64,000 bases of DNA. Source: Minisyncoccota bacterium. GTDB taxonomy: Bacteria > Patescibacteriota > Minisyncoccia > Phycocordibacterales > WO2-35-19. The stretch's first letter is position 1. Each line of letters begins with the position of its first letter. Under the pieces are notes generated by a model. It had not been told where the DNA came from, searched no databases, and saw only the letters and a program-made list of their open reading frames with translations. The DNA lies in assembly GCA_036517255.1 (NCBI GenBank), contig DATDXE010000004.1, forward strand, positions 30,543 through 94,542, written 5' to 3'. A program made the translations under genes and the position numbers. Of the stretch, positions 2,702-52,251 are shown piece by piece.

Positions 2702-3261
2702 CATTTTGTCTTCTATTACTAGAAGTATGGACTATATCATCCCCATATATTCAAAATCGAACACTTAGGGGCGAGGCGCTTCGTACCAACAACATTGCTG
2801 GAACTACTCTCTTGCGAGATAGTCTCTACACCTTTCCCTTGATTACTCTCGGGACTTGGCTCGGGATTGCCCCTTAGGGGTTTCCCCGAATTCACCTCGT
2901 TTTTCAACCCAAATTTCTTCGGGAAGCTGCGTGATGCCGTCATGTACTTCCATATGACAATTTGCGCAAATCAAAACACATTTATCTATTTCTTTGCGTA
3001 TTTTTTCCCAAGATCGAGTTAAACCTCTTAAGGACAAGCCAAAATCTTTTTTAGCTGGATCCACATGATGAAAACTCAAAGCTCTTGAGCATTTATTGTA
3101 GCCACATATAATACACTTATTGCCTTTATAAGCTCTCGCCATTTCACGTAAATTTTTTCTTCTACGTTTAACAGCCATTCGCATATATTCAGCACGGTCG
3201 GCATAAGTTCTTTTTTCTTTCCTGGTATACATATTATAAGTATACCGCAGAACTTATCGAC
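2702..3261 (-). other. group I self-splicing intron in tRNA-Asn anticodon loop (between nt 35 and 36)
   Basis: 5' exon ends in U, intron ends in G (AAAAUG|); 3' part carries GUAGAGACUAUC (R-like) and GAUAUAGUCC (S-like) elements that can form P7; ORF in the 5' peripheral region. Confidence 0.75.
2843..3232 (-). CDS. intron-encoded HNH homing endonuclease
   Basis: 129 aa; CIICGYNKC...HHVDPAKK...CANCHMEVH (HNH His-Me finger with two CxxC pairs); starts 29 nt after the 5' splice site. Confidence 0.8.
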   Translation of the reverse strand: MYTRKEKRTYADRAEYMRMAVKRRRKNLREMARAYKGNKCIICGYNKCSRALSFHHVDPAKKDFGLSLRGLTRSWEKIRKEIDKCVLICANCHMEVHDGITQLPEEIWVEKRGEFGETPKGQSRAKSRE

Positions 3262-41613: not shown

Positions 41614-41686
41614 GCTGGGATAGCTCAGTTGGTAGAGCATTCCCCTGAAGAGGGAAGGGTCGCCGGTTCGACCCCGGCTCCCAGCA
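41614..41686 (+). tRNA. tRNA-Phe(GAA)
   Basis: GCTGGGA-TA-GCTC-AGTTGGTA-GAGC-A-TTCCC-CTGAAGA-GGGAA-GGGTC-GCCGG-TTCGACC-CCGGC-TCCCAGC-A. Confidence 0.9.
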
Positions 41687-41706
41687 CACAATTAAATATT
41701 GGAAAT

Positions 41707-41779
41707 CCGCTCATAGCTCAGCTGGTAGAGCAGCTCCCTCTTAAGGAGACGGTCCCAGGTTCGATTCCTGGTGAGCGGA
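41707..41779 (+). tRNA. tRNA-Lys(CUU)
   Basis: CCGCTCA-TA-GCTC-AGCTGGTA-GAGC-A-GCTCC-CTCTTAA-GGAGA-CGGTC-CCAGG-TTCGATT-CCTGG-TGAGCGG-A; C1:G72, one mismatch in anticodon stem. Confidence 0.8.
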
Positions 41780-41790
41780 CTGCGGATATT

Positions 41791-41871
41791 GGGCAGGTGG
41801 TGAAATGGTATACACGCCAGTTTTAGGAACTGGTGCCGCAAGGCATGGAGGTTCAAGTCCTCTCCTGCCCA
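41791..41871 (+). tRNA. tRNA-Leu(UAG)
   Basis: GGGCAGG..CCAGT-TTTAGGA-ACTGG, long variable arm TGCCGCAAGGCAT, GGAGG-TTCAAGT-CCTCT-CCTGCCC-A. Confidence 0.85.
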
Positions 41872-41911
41872 CAAAAGTTTGAAAAATAATCCGCATTTGG
41901 TATAATGTCAC

Positions 41912-42275
41912 AGGTTTTCATTCCAAACGATAGCTCTGCATTTTATATGCGGAGAGGAAAGTCCGAACACTCACTCTTTTACTAGAGAAGAGTAGCGGGT
42001 AACGCCCGTCGTCCGCGAGGATAGAGATGCGAACAGAGACGAGTCTCCAAAGTAGCTTGCATCGCAAGGTACAAAAAAAGGAGAGTGAAACGGCAAAATT
42101 CTTACTTGAGTGCAAGGCCGTACACGAAATTTTATAGTCCCCGCCTCACGGCGGATCGTTAAAATTTCGTGAGTGCCGCTTGAGTCCTTGAGTAATCAAG
42201 GGCCTAGATAAATTATCGTTACGCTTACCAACGAGGTAGGTGGAACAGAATTCGGCTTATAAGAATGAAAATGAG
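41912..42275 (+). ncRNA. rnpB: RNase P RNA (bacterial type A, reduced)
   Basis: GGAAAGTCCGAACAC (CR-I/P4 5' strand) and ACAGAATTCGGCTTA (CR-V/P4 3' strand) with compensatory CGAAC/UUCGG change relative to E. coli CGGGC/CCCGG; GAGTGAAACGGC (CR-II-like); P1 GGUUUUCAUUC/GAAUGAAAAU; TGgTATAAT promoter at 41899-41906. Confidence 0.8.
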
Positions 42276-42284
42276 TACCTTAGT

Positions 42285-42320
42285 GCGAAAGCCGCCCTCA
42301 CGGGCGGCTTTCGCTTGACT
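42285..42320 (+). terminator. rho-independent terminator after rnpB
   Basis: GCGAAAGCCGCCC-tcac-GGGCGGCTTTCGC (13-bp stem) then TTGACTTTTAT. Confidence 0.7.
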
Positions 42321-42344
42321 TTTATATATAAAATGTGATATAAT
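42315..42344 (+). promoter_or_regulatory. sigma70-like promoter TTGACT-18-TATAAT upstream of G+C-rich gene 42419
   Basis: consensus hexamers; AAGGAG RBS at 42403-42408. Confidence 0.45.
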
Positions 42345-42418
42345 ACACCCAGAGACTTCTGTCTCGACAGATCGAAACAGAGAAAGTTCACCACAACAGA
42401 ATAAGGAGAATTAAGACA

Positions 42419-43594
42419 ATGCCTGCTGCTACTACTGCCCAAAGTAACGATCAACGGACGGCCTCCTCACAGACGCCGCCCCAAACAACCGTAGTCGACA
42501 GTCCGAAACCAAGACCACGCTATACTCTACTCTCGACTTGCCCCACCGGCTGGCTCGCGCTAGTCGTACGTGGAGAAGACCTGATCAGGGTGCTCCACTC
42601 GGTTCCCAAACACATCGTCAATGACGATTTCGAATTCATCCCTGATGATACCACCGCCGAAGAAGGAGACGATGTATTGAGCTTGCGGAACCTCACAGGA
42701 CGCGAGTTCATTGGATTTCCGTTCCTACGCCTAACCGGCCTCCACCGGTTCAATCATCAGTGGAGCCGGTTCTGGCCGAAATTGGACGCGGATGGGGCAC
42801 CGGTATACGAGGTGCAAGCCCACGAACGGCAGACTCTGACGTTCGCGCCATTCATCTCACAGTACCCCCTGGTATTTCCTGGGGTCGAAGTGATCGGTAG
42901 CGCGGTTGCCCCAGCGGCCGACAAAGCGGCAGGAGCCGAAACGGACCCAACATCGCAGAGGCCGCTCATACCAGTCACCTTCACGTTGACAATTCGGCTG
43001 AAGATGATACGCCCTCGGATGGCGCTCATGGAAAACACAGACGCCTTGGGCAACGTGCTGATTCCAAAAATCCGCGCCTTCCTCAAAGCCTACGCGGCCC
43101 AGAGAAGTTACGATGAATTGTTCCGCAGTTCGGGACAGTTTTCAGTAGTCACGGTCACCCAGGAATTTCGGAATTACTTCTTGGCGACAGGCAACGCGCC
43201 TGGAACAATCAGGGGTGAGATACTCGATCACACTGGGTACCAGCTCGACGACATCCAAGTTGTCGACATCAAACCCCTCGGAGAATACGAGCAAACGTTG
43301 CTCAATCTGGCCAAGGCCCACGTCGACGCCCAAAAGGCATATGTCGACGCCACGGGAAAACGCCGCGCGCGAGTTGAGGAAAGCCAAGGCGAAGCTACAG
43401 CAATAACCAACGTAGCTGCTGCCGATGCTCTTCGTATTCAGCAAACAATCATCGCGGCTGCAGGCGGTGCTGGACCAAATGCAATCGCGGCTCTGATCTG
43501 GGACATGATCAGGCAGTCGAATCTCACAACCTTGGGAGGTCAAGGACTCGGCATCATTGTCGATCCGAACAGCGGACGGCCAATGAATCCGTAA
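42419..43594 (+). CDS. SPFH/band-7-like domain protein lacking an N-terminal TM (G+C-rich cassette)
   Basis: 391 aa; C-terminal region GYQLDDIQVVDIKPLGEYEQTLLNLAKAHVDAQKAYVDATGKRRARVEESQGEATAI...NAIAALIWDMIRQ resembles SPFH domain end plus Ala/Glu-rich coiled coil of HflK/C-flotillin proteins. Confidence 0.45.
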   Translation: MPAATTAQSNDQRTASSQTPPQTTVVDSPKPRPRYTLLSTCPTGWLALVVRGEDLIRVLHSVPKHIVNDDFEFIPDDTTAEEGDDVLSLRNLTGREFIGFPFLRLTGLHRFNHQWSRFWPKLDADGAPVYEVQAHERQTLTFAPFISQYPLVFPGVEVIGSAVAPAADKAAGAETDPTSQRPLIPVTFTLTIRLKMIRPRMALMENTDALGNVLIPKIRAFLKAYAAQRSYDELFRSSGQFSVVTVTQEFRNYFLATGNAPGTIRGEILDHTGYQLDDIQVVDIKPLGEYEQTLLNLAKAHVDAQKAYVDATGKRRARVEESQGEATAITNVAAADALRIQQTIIAAAGGAGPNAIAALIWDMIRQSNLTTLGGQGLGIIVDPNSGRPMNP

Positions 43595-43626
43595 AGGTTA
43601 CAAAAGTCTGGAATCTCCTTATTCTT

Positions 43627-43676
43627 CAACCCCCTTTTGGAAAGCCGCAAGGCCGACCAGAGGGGGTTGCTTTTTT
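43627..43676 (+). terminator. rho-independent terminator
   Basis: CAACCCCC...GGGGGTTG stem then CTTTTTT. Confidence 0.6.
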
Positions 43677-43750
43677 ATATTAAGTATGCTATAATTGAAG
43701 ACAGAAGTGCGGCACAGGAGTGCCATTGAAAATCTTATACGGAGACGAAA

Positions 43751-45145
43751 ATGACGCCTATTGGAAACAGCAGCAATAGCAACCATGCCCCACAACGCGG
43801 AGAGGGGTTCACATACGGTCGAGGGACACCAAACCCCGCCCAAACCAATAACGAAGAGTGGTGGAAGAGATTCCGAGATATGTTTCGAAGGGCAACCTTC
43901 TGGGGCAAGATCGGACTGCTCTTCCAGCTTTTCCGAGCCTTTCGGGCTTGGGTAAAGAAGGAATGGTGGGGCATCGCCCTCGACACGGCGGTGGTAACAA
44001 CCATCCTGATTCTTGCTATGGGTTTAGCGACCCTCGGCATAAAGGACGGGAGTTCGGCGTTCACAACGGTAGCCATAAAGGGAGTCCTCATCGCGCTTGG
44101 CGCAGGAGCAGTGCTCTTCGGGGTATTACTCTTCCGCCGGCACCTCAAGTGGTGGCACCTTGGAATCGTGGCGACAATCATCGTCATGATTTTCTTCCTG
44201 CCATTCCACAGGATCGCACTCTGGATCCTCCATCCGATCCCCATGATATGGATCGTCGCAAGCCTCATGGCAATCGGCATTCACTTCTTCGGACCGGAAA
44301 AAGGTCTGCAGTGGAAGTGGAGAAAAAAATTGAAGCATCTTCCTAAGTGGAGGCTGAGGTTGCTGCCATTCGCGGCAGCAATCATTGCGACCATCGTGTA
44401 CCTCGCATTTAGCAACTTCGCCTTATCGGATTTGGGGTTGTTAGTACTGGTCGTGGTGGGGTTGGTAGTTCTCATCGTTATCGCAAGGACAATCGTAAAG
44501 AAAGATGAGAAAAACAAGGTCTGGCCCATCGCGGGCAAGATCGTGCTGATGCTCGTCGGGCTCGTGGTGTTCAACTACATCGCGCTCGCGACCTGGTCAT
44601 GGTGGAGGGTCCTCCGTCAGTACGAGGAGGTCTTCTGGGGAGTAAACGCCGCTCTGTTTGTGGCAATGCTCCTCACCCTGGTTACCACCGGGAAGGACGA
44701 CAACAAGAAAACCCATCCGCTTGCGATCACGGGCATCAAGGTGTTCATGTTCCTTGCGATAGTGGGGTTTGCGTCGGCTCTATACAACTTCGCCGTGGCG
44801 CACAGCCTCGACGAAGAAAAGAAAGTCGCCATGAACTCAACCAAGCTCGTGACGGCCCCTCCTAAGGGAGAAAACGATGATTGGAGCGATCCAATCAAAG
44901 TTCCAAAAGGAGTGAGCCTACGATTCCAAGCCAAAGACGGGGAGAACTATTACTCCGTCAAAAATGAGAAAGGGGAAGAGAAGCAGTACAACCCGCAAGG
45001 GCAAAGCTGTTTCGACACCGCAGGCACCGCAATGCTAGACGCGGAGCAGTGCCTCGGCGACTCAGAGATCATCTGGTTCCAGTCAGGGACCGACGAATCG
45101 AAGGAGATGATCGTAGAGTTCCTACCTTACGTCTCCAGAGAGTAG
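43751..45145 (+). CDS. polytopic membrane protein (about 10 TM) with ~100 aa C-terminal soluble domain (G+C-rich cassette)
   Basis: TGcTATAAT extended -10 at 43687-43695, GGAGA RBS; Trp/Arg-rich N-terminus then repeated hydrophobic helices; C-terminal domain with two Cys. Confidence 0.5.
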   Translation: MTPIGNSSNSNHAPQRGEGFTYGRGTPNPAQTNNEEWWKRFRDMFRRATFWGKIGLLFQLFRAFRAWVKKEWWGIALDTAVVTTILILAMGLATLGIKDGSSAFTTVAIKGVLIALGAGAVLFGVLLFRRHLKWWHLGIVATIIVMIFFLPFHRIALWILHPIPMIWIVASLMAIGIHFFGPEKGLQWKWRKKLKHLPKWRLRLLPFAAAIIATIVYLAFSNFALSDLGLLVLVVVGLVVLIVIARTIVKKDEKNKVWPIAGKIVLMLVGLVVFNYIALATWSWWRVLRQYEEVFWGVNAALFVAMLLTLVTTGKDDNKKTHPLAITGIKVFMFLAIVGFASALYNFAVAHSLDEEKKVAMNSTKLVTAPPKGENDDWSDPIKVPKGVSLRFQAKDGENYYSVKNEKGEEKQYNPQGQSCFDTAGTAMLDAEQCLGDSEIIWFQSGTDESKEMIVEFLPYVSRE

Positions 45146-45172
45146 TATTTCCCTCCGTATAAGAAAAAAAAC

Positions 45173-45208
45173 CTGCCCCCTCAAAGTTTAGAGGGGGCAG
45201 ATTTGTTT
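45173..45208 (+). terminator. rho-independent terminator
   Basis: CTGCCCCCTC-aaagttta-GAGGGGGCAG then ATTTGTTTAT. Confidence 0.65.
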
Positions 45209-45244
45209 ATCTATTATTCAGAATGTTCAGTCAGGATGAATACA

Positions 45245-45517
45245 CTATCTCGGAATGATACCCCCAGTTTGGTTTGGAATACCGAAAGTATTGAGAACGA
45301 AGTTTACGATGCCGTAGACGCTGAACATGATGAACATGCCGACTATACCATAAACGATACTCTTCTTGCCCTCTTCCCTTTTAGTATCATCGTCAGATGA
45401 AGCGATGAATTTGGCCACTCCGAAGAAGAATACGGCGGTCGCCACCACAAACCCGAGTATAATAACAGGGTTCAGGATAAACTCATTTATCTTGGCGAGG
45501 AACTGGCCGACTGTCAT
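45245..45517 (-). CDS. small two-TM protein, paralog 1 of tandem family (VirB2/TrbC-pilin-like topology)
   Basis: TM1-short K/E loop-TM2; shares layout with six upstream paralogs. Confidence 0.5.
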   Translation of the reverse strand: MTVGQFLAKINEFILNPVIILGFVVATAVFFFGVAKFIASSDDDTKREEGKKSIVYGIVGMFIMFSVYGIVNFVLNTFGIPNQTGGIIPR

Positions 45518-47897: not shown

Positions 47898-49187
47898 TTA
47901 TTTGAAGAGCTCTGTTATTTCCCTACTAGCCTTCACTACTGCCGCCGAAGTGCGCTCGCGACCGCTTGTAATACTCTCTATCATGTTAGCAAATATTTTT
48001 GCTGTAGCAGTAGGCTCAGGATCAAGCCAAGCCTTGGACCGGAGTGCACTTTCGTAGAAAACTGCCTGGTATGCGTCAAGAGCTTTAGTTCCGAGTAAGT
48101 CGCGCCGAGCAGGGGGGACACCGAGAGCTTCGCTTATAGCCAGTGCTCCTTCACGACTTGAAAGGATAGAAGCGACGCCAAAGGCGGCATTTGCATTCTT
48201 AGAGCCACGGGAAATAGCAAAACCATAAAACTTGCCGTAGGAAACGTTGTTACCAGAATCTTTAGAGGTGGGCACTGAAGAAACATCGAAATTTAAATTA
48301 GGATTTTTCAGCTGGATCAGAGCTATCTCACTTGCAAAACCGAAATAGAGAGCCATATCCCCAGAAAGAAAATAAGTTTGGGAAAGAGGCATCGATCTAT
48401 TCCAAGAATAATAAGGTTTAACCGGATTTGAAAATTCAGTGTAGAAATTGACAGCGGCTTCTCCAGGGATGACTGGTTTTTCAAATGAATCTGCCATAAC
48501 AGAACGAGTATCATCACCAAATCTCTGGACGATAGGTGTACCAGCCTGCATCATCAAATTCGAAATGATAGCTTTGGCGTTTGATACATTATTATACTCA
48601 CCAAAAGAAACTAAGGACTTTTGAATATTCAGTGCTCCATCTTTTTTGGATATAAGCCCAGCGAGAGAATAGAATTCATCCCAATATTTAGGAGGGCTAG
48701 TCAGCTTAGCATCGGTGAAAACTTTTCTACTCCAATACATAACAAGTGGATCGACAATCACGGGAAGAGCTACTATCCCCGTCGGGTCAAGATAAATTTC
48801 GGATCCTTCTATAAAAGAGTCCTTGAACATCCTCTCAGAGAAAGCGTCGTATGGAATTAGAGTAATCTTATTTTTCTGCTTCACTATTTTATCGTGAGGC
48901 AGAAGAAATAGATCAGGGCCATTTCCTGAAGCAAGAGCCTCCACGTACTCATCGTCAAAAAGAGCTTCTTCTTTATAAGAATAACTTATTTTATATGCTT
49001 CGTTATTATAGAGAGAAGTTTTTGAAATAATACTTTGAAAAACTTCTGGATTCACATTGCCCCAGATACTCACTTCTGCCTGCTCTACTCCACCACCTTG
49101 ATATTTAGAAAATATTATGACGCTTACTATAATAAGGATACCAAAAACTCCTAGAATAATAACCTGAAACTTAGACATATTTCCCAT
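47898..49187 (-). CDS. extracellular solute-binding protein (ABC-type, family 1-like), membrane anchored
   Basis: N-terminal anchor helix; overall alpha/beta SBP-like pattern; assignment by general resemblance only. Confidence 0.5.
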   Translation of the reverse strand: MGNMSKFQVIILGVFGILIIVSVIIFSKYQGGGVEQAEVSIWGNVNPEVFQSIISKTSLYNNEAYKISYSYKEEALFDDEYVEALASGNGPDLFLLPHDKIVKQKNKITLIPYDAFSERMFKDSFIEGSEIYLDPTGIVALPVIVDPLVMYWSRKVFTDAKLTSPPKYWDEFYSLAGLISKKDGALNIQKSLVSFGEYNNVSNAKAIISNLMMQAGTPIVQRFGDDTRSVMADSFEKPVIPGEAAVNFYTEFSNPVKPYYSWNRSMPLSQTYFLSGDMALYFGFASEIALIQLKNPNLNFDVSSVPTSKDSGNNVSYGKFYGFAISRGSKNANAAFGVASILSSREGALAISEALGVPPARRDLLGTKALDAYQAVFYESALRSKAWLDPEPTATAKIFANMIESITSGRERTSAAVVKASREITELFK

Positions 49188-49785: not shown

Positions 49786-52251
49786 TTACAAACAAATGAA
49801 AGAGGCAATGGAGTCGCCGTCGCGGAGCTTCATGATACGAACGCCTTGAGTGGAGCGACCGAGAGTAGGTATCTCTTTCAGTTCGAGGCGGATGACCTGA
49901 CTTTTCTTCGACATGGCCACGGCCTCCTCTTCCTCACCTGTTACCACTTGAGAAGCAATGATGTCGCCAGTTTTACTTGTGACGTTACTTGTTTTTATTC
50001 CCGAGCCACCGCGACCTTGTATTTTGTATTCATCAATCGGAGTTTTCTTGCCATAACCTTTTTCGCCCATGACTACAAGTTCAGCAGTTTTTTCAAACGC
50101 CTTGGGTACATTGTGCGCGCCTATGATTTTATCGCCTTTGCCGAGCTTCATCACTCTTACACCAGCGGCTTGGCGACCCATCTCTCGTACTTGGGATTCG
50201 GCAAACCTGATCGATTGACCTTTAGCAGTTACCACTGCGCAAGAATCACCTTTATCAACCTGGGAAACAGAAATCAACTTATCACCCGCTCCCAACTTGA
50301 TAGCGATGATGCCGCTTGTACGCACATCGTGGAAACTCGAAGCTGAAACTTTTTTACCAGTACCTTGTTCAGTTATCATTATAAGAGATAGATTTTTGTT
50401 GTCCTTCAAGTTTTTCGGCATCGGCAAAATTGAAGTGACCTTCTCCCCTTCGGTAAGAGAAAGGAAATTCATAATTGATTTACCTCGAGTGGCTCGCCTA
50501 CCTTCCGGCAACTCATACATCTTTATTTGATAAGCCTTACCTTTGTCAGTAAAGAACAGGAGATCGGAATGAGTACTAGCGGTCAAGAAATGGGAGACAA
50601 AATCCTCTTCCTTAGTATCAAGGTCGACGACACCTACTCCTCCCCGCTTTTGCTGCTTAAATTCGCTTGGATGAGTGCGCTTCACATAACCTCCTTGAGT
50701 GAGCATAAGAGTGTTTTCCTCATCAGCGATGAGATCCTCCATTGAAAGAGCCTTCACTCCCCCTTTTACCACTTTAGTACGCCTCTCATCACCATATTTT
50801 TCTGCTATTTCTGAAAGTTCTTTTTTGATAATAGTCAAAATCTTCTTTGGGTTTTCCAAAATACTCTTCAAATCTTTTATCAGAGCTTGTACTGAGCTTA
50901 ATTCATCTTCTATTTTTTGTCTCTCGAGCCCAGCCAATTTTTGCAAACGCATTTCGAGAATAGCATTCGCCTGACGTTCTGAGAATTTGAACTCTTTCAT
51001 CAAATTAGCCCTAGCAGTATCAACATCCTTCGACTTCTTGATCAATTTTATGATTTCATCGATATGGTCGAGAGCTTTCTTCAAACCAAGTAGAATATGC
51101 TCTCTGTCTTCCGCTTCGCGTAGTTCAAACTCCGTCCGCCTTTTTATGACGATTTTCCTGTGACCAATAAATTCTTCGATTACACTTTTGAGTGAAAGAG
51201 TCTGCGGCACACCGTCGACTAGAGCCACCAGGTTCATGTGGAAAGTTTCTTCCAGCTGAGTGTGTTTGTAGAGGAAATTTAAAACTTTTTGCGGATAGCT
51301 ACCATTCTTCAAGTCGATCACCACTCTTATGTCTTTAGTCGACTCATCGCGCAAGCCTTTGATACCCTCCAATTTCTTCTCTCGCACCAATTCCGCGATT
51401 TTTTCTACCAGAGTTTGTTTGTTTACTCTGAATGGAATAGAGGTAATAATAATTTGACTCATACCCTTTTCCTCGACGATATCAGCTACTCCGCGACAAA
51501 CCATACCTCCACGACCAGTAGAATATGCGTGATGAATATCCTTTTCGTTAAAAATTACTCCACCGATTGGGAAATCAGGACCTTTGACAAATTGCAATAA
51601 ATCTTCAGTAGTGGCATCAGGATTTTCAATAAAATAGGCACAAGCGTCAGCCACTTCTCGCAAATTGTGAGGAGGAATGTTTGTGGCCATACCGACTGCG
51701 ATACCGAGAGTACCGTTTAATAGTAATTGTGGTACTGCCGCTGGAAGGACTGCTGGCTCTTTTTTTGTCGCATCATAATTTGGCCTCCAATCGACAGTAT
51801 CTTTATTTATATCGCGCAGAAGTTCACCGGAAAGACGTGACATTTTAGCTTCGGTGTAACGCATCGCAGCAGCGCTATCCCCATCGATAGAGCCGAAGTT
51901 ACCCTGGCCGATAATAAGCGGGTAACGCATCGTAAAATCTTGGGCCATCTTCACCATAGAATCGTAGACAGCTACATCGCCGTGCGGATGATAATTACCA
52001 AGCACTTCTCCCACCACAGTTGCTGATTTACGAGTTTTAGCGGTCGCAGTCAAATTCAAAGTATTCATGGCGTAAAGTATGCGACGATGAACAGGTTTCA
52101 AACCATCACGCACATCAGGTAAGGCCCTGTCAGTAATAACTGACATGGCATAATCGATGAAAGACTCTTTCATTTCCGTCACAATCGAACGCGAAATTAC
52201 GCCTTTATTAGGAACAGCATTCTCCACATTTTCTTCTACATTTTTAGCCAT
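49786..52251 (-). CDS. gyrA: DNA gyrase subunit A
   Basis: [25 protein letters not shown] (active-site Tyr region), six C-terminal beta-pinwheel blades, GyrA box. Confidence 0.95.

Follow-up and report, generated by a model that had tools for sequence, protein, structure and literature searches.

Two adjacent genes, here called A and B, lie between positions 42419 and 45145 of a 64-kb stretch of contig DATDXE010000004.1, from a Minisyncoccota bacterium (GenBank assembly GCA_036517255.1). This whole stretch of 64,000 nucleotides is hereafter referred to as the window. It encodes GroEL, FtsA, FtsZ, RNase J, TsaD, LeuRS, GyrA and ribosomal protein S1, a content that marks it as ordinary core chromosome, and its GyrA is at most 83% identical to that of Candidatus Zambryskibacteria (Paceibacteria, Patescibacteria). 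The window is core chromosome of a Zambryskibacteria-like Patescibacterium. An initial annotation had described A and B as a G+C-rich module of a band-7-like protein and a membrane protein, possibly imported as a cargo or effector pair. Here, we report that A is a genuine, very divergent and lineage-restricted SPFH/band-7 protein without a membrane anchor, and that the pair is the form taken here by a rapidly changing cassette of two genes, which in many related Patescibacteria occupies a fixed slot between a tRNA/rnpB cluster and an array of VirB2-like pilin genes. The conserved slot beside the pilin array, its hypervariability and its persistent anomaly in composition are of greater interest than the question of import. 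Both open reading frames (ORFs), encoding 391 and 464 residues, were found as first described, and the locus is arranged as follows.

41614-42275, plus strand: left flank with tRNA-Phe, tRNA-Lys, tRNA-Leu and rnpB (RNase P RNA, 41915-42275), assigned with Rfam and ARAGORN
42419-43594, plus strand: gene A, SPFH-type protein of 391 residues without a transmembrane (TM) segment
43751-45145, plus strand: gene B, polytopic membrane protein of 464 residues
45245-47882, minus strand: seven VirB2-like T4SS_pilin genes that converge on A and B, assigned with PF18895 and a pilin hidden Markov model (HMM)
47898-49187, minus strand: SBP gene, beyond the pilin array
49786-52251: gyrA, beyond the SBP and methyltransferase genes

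The proteins encoded by genes A and B

The ORF of gene A opens at the first start codon past a stop codon, and no upstream extension is possible. The protein begins with a disordered tail rich in Pro, Thr and Gln (residues 1-34), which is followed by an SPFH region (about residues 35-287), a long helix of the coiled-coil type (residues 288-345) and a C-terminal tail that carries a conserved NLTT...IIV motif. The highest Kyte-Doolittle mean over 19 residues is 1.39, and there is no hydrophobic segment, in agreement with the anchor-less protein first described. The Pfam domain Band_7 (PF01145, gathering score 23.6 bits) matches residues 187-326 with 17.5 bits (E=0.0044), which is below the cut-off. 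Protein P0002 reaches 21.6 bits, and the homologues P0004 to P0008 and P0010 pass the cut-off with 30-41 bits. In two of the homologues that pass, the match reaches the N-terminal half.

A model of A was made with AlphaFold2 from the 13-sequence family alignment. Its predicted local distance difference test score (pLDDT) is 61 overall and 70-87 for residues 180-345, which comprise an alpha/beta domain and then a helix of 58 residues (288-345). When the model was compared with the PDB using Foldseek, the top 48 matches were all SPFH proteins (probability 0.95-1.0; best E-value 1e-6), and they include stomatin, HflK/C, prohibitin, erlin, QmcA, flotillin and the major vault protein. The 17 top matches in the viral structure library, with probabilities in the same range, are likewise all generic SPFH proteins. 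The model aligned to the isolated SPFH domain of stomatin with a TM-score of about 0.66, and A is 9-18% identical in sequence to solved SPFH proteins. The homologues that pass the Band_7 threshold, the structural matches to SPFH proteins only and the lack of a hydrophobic segment together identify A as a very divergent SPFH protein without an anchor, and so bear out the SPFH-like C-terminal half and coiled coil of the initial annotation.

The A family is tiny and is essentially limited to this lineage: an exhaustive profile search among 1.84 billion cluster representatives returned only 13 at E<1e-10. All of its full-length members start with "MA", have a short Pro/Thr-rich tail and an SPFH core, and lack a TM anchor. 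By fold and by family-level sequence evidence A is an SPFH protein, but it stands outside every named subfamily (HflK/C, FloA/T and QmcA). The NCBIfam models for HflC and FloT are matched by the relative P0005 only, with 17 bits against a cut-off of 134 bits and 19 bits against a cut-off of 700 bits, respectively, and FloA is matched by P0004 only (E=0.037). A itself reaches no family in NCBIfam, PADLOC or PHROG, the PHROG matches being at noise level. Of two locus scans with alignments of A, one gave no conserved block, and the other returned only pattern matches that are not true relatives.

Gene B encodes a protein that belongs to no described family. Hydropathy analysis places nine TM segments within residues 72-351; the initial annotation had counted ten, and was correct in describing a polytopic protein with a soluble C-terminal domain. 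The TM segments are preceded by a basic cytoplasmic N terminus (residues 1-71), which has the motif W..F...R...FWGK, and are followed by a soluble C terminus of 113 residues (352-464), which is predicted to be partly β-stranded and has the motif VTAP..WSxPIxVPKG. Lys and Arg residues number 12, 7 and 3 in the N terminus and alternate loops and 0-2 in the other loops, a distribution that puts the N terminus inside and the C-terminal domain outside the cell. This topology fits the need for the lysozyme-like domain found in relatives of B (see below) to face outward.

Searched against Pfam at E-values up to 10, B gave weak matches to DUF7937, Ceramidase and DUF2070 only; no NfeD and no protease domain was found, nor any relationship to the NfeD or YqiJ families that the initial annotation had named for comparison. 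The match to DUF7937 (20 bits, below the cut-off) is absent in ten relatives of B and was discarded as noise from TM composition. No Pfam match to VirB6/TrbL was obtained for B or for ten relatives, NCBIfam has no family for B, and word-indexed searches for homologues of B returned one and two matches only. A variant of B in the databases, P0003, is identical to window B save for R40I (window numbering), one substitution near the end and an in-frame deletion of 34 residues in the C-terminal extracytoplasmic domain (about residues 406-439 of window B). This deletion indicates that the C-terminal domain varies in length at the level of strains.

The TM domain of B is homologous to that encoded by the gene after A in locus L001 (24% identity, E=3e-9). 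In most relatives that occupy the position of B, the TM domain is followed by a lysozyme-like domain and then by a terminal domain. The lysozyme-like domain, recognized in 13 relatives, has about 110 residues, an invariant Glu in a motif of the CECESG type and a GxYQ motif, and it gives consistent weak matches to the lysozyme-clan families Transglycosylas, SLT_3 and C-type lysozyme (Lys). An HMM of the terminal domain, built from the relatives with the window excluded, matches window B at residues 363-415 (E=2e-7) and otherwise finds only proteins in the position of B. No lysozyme-like domain is present in window B, which passes from residue 352 onward directly into the terminal domain. Window B thus retains its TM platform and terminal domain, while the lysozyme-like domain between them has been lost.

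The slot, its composition and its signals

The order A, B and convergent pilin array is seen in all loci that have a member of the A family and enough contig (the window, L001, L003, L004, L012, L088/L089 and L090), and the array comprises about seven genes where the contig extends that far. A and B co-occur, side by side, in every homologous locus examined; in the short loci L005 to L007, the start of B is seen after A. The initial annotation had let its proposal depend on a predicted SPFH fold and on the co-occurrence of the two genes elsewhere, and both were found. The slot is bordered by tRNAs and/or rnpB in L001, L004, L008, L009, L011, L012 and L013, and on the other side the SBP gene is also reached in L003, L004, L012, L088 and L089, and gyrA in L003, L004, L012 and L088; most gyrA-anchored loci share this gene order.

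A wider survey was made of gyrA-anchored loci of GTDB genomes, 50 of which have a pilin array. A convergent gene pair is found directly past the array in 44 of these 50. Using iterated HMMs, the first gene of the pair was SPFH-like in 30 loci and an SPFH-like gene lay one gene away in three more; the loci contain no other SPFH-like gene. Where at least 8 kb of sequence lie downstream of gyrA, an SPFH gene accompanies the pilin array in 28 of 45 loci, and none is found in the four loci that lack the array. Most of these remote SPFH relatives in the slot carry a TM helix at the N terminus, with basic residues after it, which places their SPFH domain in the cytoplasm, and several of them exceed the Band_7 cut-off.

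The segment 42419-45145 has a G+C content of 0.540, compared with 0.412 +/- 0.023 (maximum 0.465) for stretches of the same length elsewhere in the window (z=5.6), and both ORFs are thus, as first noted, far richer in G+C than the host. The G+C content of third codon positions (GC3) is 0.60 in A and 0.69 in B, and ranges from 0.25 to 0.46 in 30 other genes of the window; in gene A, first and second positions (GC1 and GC2) are elevated as well. Outside A-B, the G+C content of 1-kb windows does not exceed 0.48 anywhere in the 64 kb, so that no other cassettes of this composition are seen, and the resemblance to further cargo cassettes that had been suggested was not found. An assembly chimera was considered as the source of the G+C jump and was rejected, because an independent ENA contig (L002) covers the whole of gene A and 53 codons at the start of B with 99.7-100% amino acid identity, and because the same step in composition recurs in relatives.

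In the surveyed loci, GC3 of the slot pair exceeds that of the other locus genes by 0.147 on average and by more than 0.1 in 30 of 44. The two genes of the pair have values of 0.55 and 0.52 in L013 (rest 0.27), 0.68 and 0.62 in L046 (rest 0.33), and 0.50 and 0.54 in L088 (rest 0.25-0.41); in higher-G+C relatives (L003, L034 and L049), GC3 of the pair equals the background. GC3 is raised across the lineage, as a property of the slot and not of this genome. High expression was also considered as the cause of the high GC3 and is not supported, as GC3 of the genes for GroEL, FtsZ, GyrA and S1 is 0.39-0.41. A GC bias linked to recombination or a common pool of alleles may account for the lasting high G+C.

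The pilin gene closest to B (45245-45517, minus strand) has a GC3 of 0.59, similar to that of A and B, and the remaining six pilin genes have values of 0.33-0.43. A G+C-rich terminal pilin gene is also present in L003 and L012, and not in L010, L013 and L076. The variable G+C-rich segment may therefore reach into the last pilin gene at times. Five of the seven pilins match PF18895 with E-values of 1e-7 to 1e-12, and the other two match an HMM derived from the pilins of the window.

The sequence of the slot changes fast. In pairs of genomes whose GyrA proteins are 93-96% identical, A shares just 7-37% (identity multiplied by coverage). L004 and L008, for instance, have GyrA proteins that are 93% identical; A is anchor-less in the former and TM-anchored in the latter. 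The flanks of these two loci are 82-92% identical in DNA. No similarity at the DNA level is seen across A and the TM part of B, and it resumes inside the lysozyme-like domain of B. A and the TM part of B have thus been replaced jointly, and the lysozyme-like part of B has been retained. In further comparisons of loci, similarity vanishes from just before the start codon of A through the last pilin gene, and the promoter upstream of A is part of the conserved flank. The pilin genes of L004 and L008 are also more diverged in DNA than gyrA (66-73% versus about 82% identity), and a similar pattern, over a short stretch of gyrA, is seen when L003 is compared with L009 and L011. By this divergence, the whole pilin array and the A-B region appear to evolve fast relative to the backbone.

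The signals around the two genes are compact.

42285-42314, plus strand: intrinsic terminator hairpin of rnpB, 13-bp stem with 10 G-C pairs
42315-42344, plus strand: promoter of gene A, TTGACT, 18-nt spacer and TG-extended TATAAT, 11 of 12 consensus positions
42403-42408, plus strand: Shine-Dalgarno sequence AAGGAG of gene A, 10 nt ahead of the ATG, by direct reading
43606-43625, plus strand: segment of the 3' untranslated region complementary to 42398-42417, the Shine-Dalgarno region of gene A (inverted repeat I3)
43627-43676, plus strand: terminator of gene A, a hairpin of CAACCCCC...GGGGGTTG with C and TTTTTT after it, -25.9 kcal/mol
43687-43695, plus strand: promoter of gene B, extended -10 element TGCTATAAT, TATAAT invariant in the alignment
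43741-43744, plus strand: GGAG ahead of gene B, by direct reading
45165-45208: bidirectional terminator of gene B and the convergent pilin array (inverted repeat I2)

The separate promoters, the terminator between the genes and the ribosome-binding site of A that the initial annotation had read from the sequence are all present. The 3' end of the rnpB terminator directly adjoins the -35 element in the promoter of gene A, and this layout of a terminator and then a promoter is repeated in L001 and L003. Upstream of A, the sequence TTGaCTT...TGTGATATAAT is common to nine loci. The hairpin between A and B occupies 43627-43669 and is followed by the T-run. Its element GGTTGCTTTTTT is kept, with compensatory changes in the stem, in L001, L003, L004, L012, L088 and L090, and is GGTTGATTTTTT instead of GGTTGCTTTTTT in L005; folded individually, the hairpins of the family loci have energies of -18 to -29 kcal/mol and terminate in GGGGTTGCTTTTTT. 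In the homologous loci, the distance from the end of the terminator T-run is 8-10 nt to the start of the extended element TG(C/A)TATAAT and 11-13 nt to the start of its TATAAT hexamer. The conservation of both promoters and the hairpin across 7-9 homologous loci exceeds chance, and the design of hairpin, T-run and extended -10 element is also found between A and B of many TM-anchored versions (L009, L011, L013, L014 and others). These signals indicate that A and B are probably transcribed as two units in this clade, which would permit unequal dosage.

The compact arrangement of a terminator before a promoter is seen at both junctions, rnpB-A and A-B. It is repeated in many relatives and could be a general trait of these small genomes. 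The duplex between 42398-42417 and 43606-43625 has an energy of -22.7 kcal/mol (z=-7.1 versus shuffles), with 12 contiguous bases paired. This complementarity is weak in L090 and L001 and is absent in the other family loci; it may represent a pairing of the 5' and 3' ends, specific to the window, that masks the ribosome-binding site of gene A, or it may be due to chance.

Two other features of the window were noted. In the window, L003, L004, L088 and most gyrA-anchored loci, the gene immediately upstream of the pilin array, between gyrA and the first pilin gene, always encodes a membrane-anchored solute-binding protein (SBP_bac_1); it shares the strand of the array and may be co-transcribed with it. 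A group I intron match in Rfam (76.6 bits) at 2709-2997 on the minus strand overlaps an ORF (2843-3232, minus strand) with Cys/His motifs like those of HNH endonucleases; it lies outside every tRNA gene predicted by ARAGORN.

A proposed role beside the pilin array

The conserved layout of A and B as two units, and the gaps of 0-11 nt between them in 8 of 30 more distant loci, which indicate an operon there, speak for A and B as a functional pair. The distribution of membrane anchors is consistent with such a pairing: anchor-less A proteins occur with B proteins of 5-9 TM segments, and TM-anchored A proteins with B proteins of 0-6. The W..F...R...FWGK segment is present in three of the five tabulated B partners of anchor-less A proteins, and in none of the other B proteins.

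Previously, SPFH proteins have been described to build rings or cages that abut membranes (PMC12624060). By analogy, A would be synthesized in the cytoplasm under its own strong promoter, and its long helix and C-terminal tail would mediate oligomerization into a ring or cage at the cytoplasmic face of the membrane. As it has no anchor, A could be tethered by B through the enlarged TM domain and the basic N-terminal segment of the latter. The complex might then organize or gate B and neighbouring envelope proteins of a surface apparatus related to pilins and type IV secretion systems (T4SSs). In most relatives, B would be a membrane-anchored cell-wall hydrolase analogous to VirB1, by virtue of its extracytoplasmic lysozyme-like domain; in this genome the hydrolase domain is gone, and at most a role as scaffold or platform would be left. 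The coding segment of A and B could be swapped between lineages by recombination in the conserved flanks, and the raised G+C content is, speculatively, a consequence of this exchange. The link to the pilin apparatus is suggested by the strict adjacency to the array and by the lysozyme-like domain of most B relatives. Taken as a whole, a cytoplasmic SPFH scaffold that is tethered by B and linked to a pilin-related envelope apparatus is a tentative reading of the locus, and it may well prove wrong.

Several systems offer parallels. Arrays of VirB2-like genes are widespread in Patescibacteria, where 441 arrays of 2-11 genes each were described and the neighbourhoods of virB4 were studied (Quinonero-Coronel et al. 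2025, PMC12102498), and the seven pilin genes beside A-B form such an array. SPFH proteins are not mentioned in that work, which analyses T4SSs and pilin arrays of Patescibacteria, and a cassette of an SPFH and a membrane protein beside a VirB2-like array appears to be undescribed in the literature searched. The T4SSs of monoderm bacteria have VirB1-like anchored hydrolases, such as PrgK of pCF10 and TraG of pIP501 (PMC12102498); similarly, the relatives of B have both N-terminal TM segments and a lysozyme-like domain outside the cytoplasm, and they adjoin VirB2-like genes. However, window B has no hydrolase domain and the lysozyme-clan matches of its relatives are weak; CHAP and NlpC/P60 domains and an adjacent virB4 are also absent, and PrgK and TraG have no counterpart to the polytopic TM domain (up to nine helices) and terminal domain of B. 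In Staphylococcus aureus, the flotillin FloA scaffolds the secretion system of type VII (T7SS), which provides a case of an SPFH protein that assists the assembly of an envelope-spanning secretion system in a monoderm (PMC5718613). Unlike A, FloA is membrane-anchored, is encoded away from the T7SS genes and is not hypervariable.

A number of observations weigh against a scaffold linked to the pilins. The interaction of A with B and the oligomerization of A are drawn from SPFH biology and gene context, and the link to the pilins from adjacency alone; the genes are convergent, and A-B and the pilins therefore belong to different transcription units. Genes for VirB4, VirB6 and VirD4 are all absent from the 64-kb window, and in 17 of 45 pilin loci an SPFH-like gene was not detected in the slot. 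The lysozyme-like assignment in the relatives depends on weak matches (E about 1e-3) and the conserved Glu and GxYQ motif, and a role in the cell wall does not apply as such to window B, which lacks that domain. The model of A is of moderate quality (pLDDT 61), with residues 1-110 not resolved, and that of B, made from three sequences, is unusable (pLDDT 37.5).

A more far-reaching version would regard the slot as a hitherto unrecognized, rapidly diversifying "envelope-interface cassette" of Paceibacteria, in which an SPFH cage and a B platform, mostly with a VirB1-like wall-opening enzyme, serve a VirB2-like pilin apparatus. Its alleles would be exchanged through the tRNA/rnpB and pilin flanks, the G+C excess would be the footprint of repeated recombination (gene conversion biased towards GC or a common pool of alleles), and an anchor-less A with an enlarged B would be an allele class in which anchoring has moved to the partner. 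In this full form the proposal is doubtful.

Alternative explanations and implications

The pair could instead be a generic SPFH housekeeping module, similar to SPFH-NfeD or HflK/C-FtsH, that acts in quality control of membrane proteins or in stress, with the pilin neighbourhood a matter of inherited synteny. A has the SPFH fold, the structures closest to it include those of QmcA, HflK/C and stomatin, and A-B is convergent with the pilin genes and not co-transcribed with them. A shares with the SPFH/band-7 scaffolds (stomatin, prohibitin, flotillin FloA/FloT, HflK/C and QmcA; PF01145) the alpha/beta SPFH domain, the long helix and a short conserved tail. It differs from them in having neither an N-terminal TM nor a hairpin anchor, although remote relatives in the slot do carry one, and it is a single SPFH gene, unlike the tandem TM-anchored paralogues HflK and HflC. 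It is the classic arrangement for an SPFH gene to adjoin the gene of a dedicated membrane-protein partner, and in SPFH-NfeD operons, such as QmcA-YbbJ and YqiK-YqiJ of E. coli and PH1511-PH1510 of Pyrococcus, that membrane protein has, as here, a small soluble C-terminal domain. However, B has no match to NfeD or its OB-fold and no ClpP-like or other protease domain in Pfam (E up to 10) or NCBIfam. In SPFH-NfeD operons the partner gene is located upstream and is co-transcribed, whereas gene B is downstream of A, behind a terminator, and has its own extended -10 promoter. The C-terminal domain of NfeD and the SPFH cage share one side of the membrane; the C-terminal domain of B is predicted to be extracytoplasmic, opposite to the cytoplasmic A. 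The absence of an NfeD domain, the reversed order, the separate promoter and the opposite membrane sides show that the pair is not an SPFH-NfeD operon. Moreover, housekeeping modules are not normally swapped between genomes with GyrA proteins that are 93-96% identical, and the SPFH-like genes of these loci are confined to the slot or beside it. A housekeeping function is thus unlikely.

Import, the possibility raised by the initial annotation, would mean that a cargo or effector cassette from a higher-G+C donor (a mobile element, a phage or a host) had inserted beside rnpB and the tRNAs. The composition anomaly is strong (z=5.6, with GC1, GC2 and GC3 of A all elevated), a tRNA/rnpB cluster forms one flank, the A-B segment is replaced among close relatives, and GC3 of the pair is like that of higher-G+C relatives such as L003. 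Against this, the A family is found in the identical slot in eight loci and is essentially confined to the lineage, most relatives have an equivalent pair, the GC3 excess is lineage-wide, and the conserved flank includes the promoter upstream of A. There is no integrase or transposase between 39.8 and 53 kb, and direct repeats around A-B, att-like or bounding, are at chance level only. The pattern of presence and absence typical of an integrative element is not seen, the slot being filled in 44 of 50 relatives. Relatives of A were found neither in phage and plasmid collections (tblastn) nor in IMG/VR (scan). An origin as imported cargo is accordingly distinctly improbable, and the comparison of loci indicates that the pair is resident and not a recent import. 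Given the absence of mobility markers and the turnover of the slot, all that is left of the cassette idea is the replacement of alleles, within the lineage, at a locus that is resident.

A hypervariable module of conflict or interaction, either an anti-phage or exclusion system that guards the pilins or a host-directed wall-attacking factor with the lysozyme-like domain of B as effector and A as regulator, would suit the extreme divergence and cassette swapping relative to the backbone, the pilin neighbours that are more diverged than gyrA, the extracytoplasmic lysozyme-like domain of B relatives and the epibiotic life of Patescibacteria (PMC12102498), but it is very unlikely, as PADLOC gave no matches for A, B and four relatives (E up to 0.1), no toxin-like domain is present and window B lacks any enzymatic domain.

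Among these readings we retain, tentatively, the SPFH scaffold that is tethered by B beside the pilin array. Patescibacteria make up a large and mostly uncultured share of bacterial diversity. In the one genetically tractable species of this group, T4SS-related genes and VirB2-like arrays have been reported to be essential for the epibiotic lifestyle, and an array was reported essential in Ca. Southlakia epibionticum (PMC12102498). The G+C-rich island described here is a property of a conserved slot and not a mark of recent import, which calls for caution with methods that search for islands. Furthermore, A adds an anchor-less variant to the SPFH proteins, in which the partner appears to take over anchoring. 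An SPFH scaffold and an anchored lysozyme-like protein, encoded beside the array in many Paceibacteria and evolving far faster than the core genome, would be a testable candidate partner of the pilin array.

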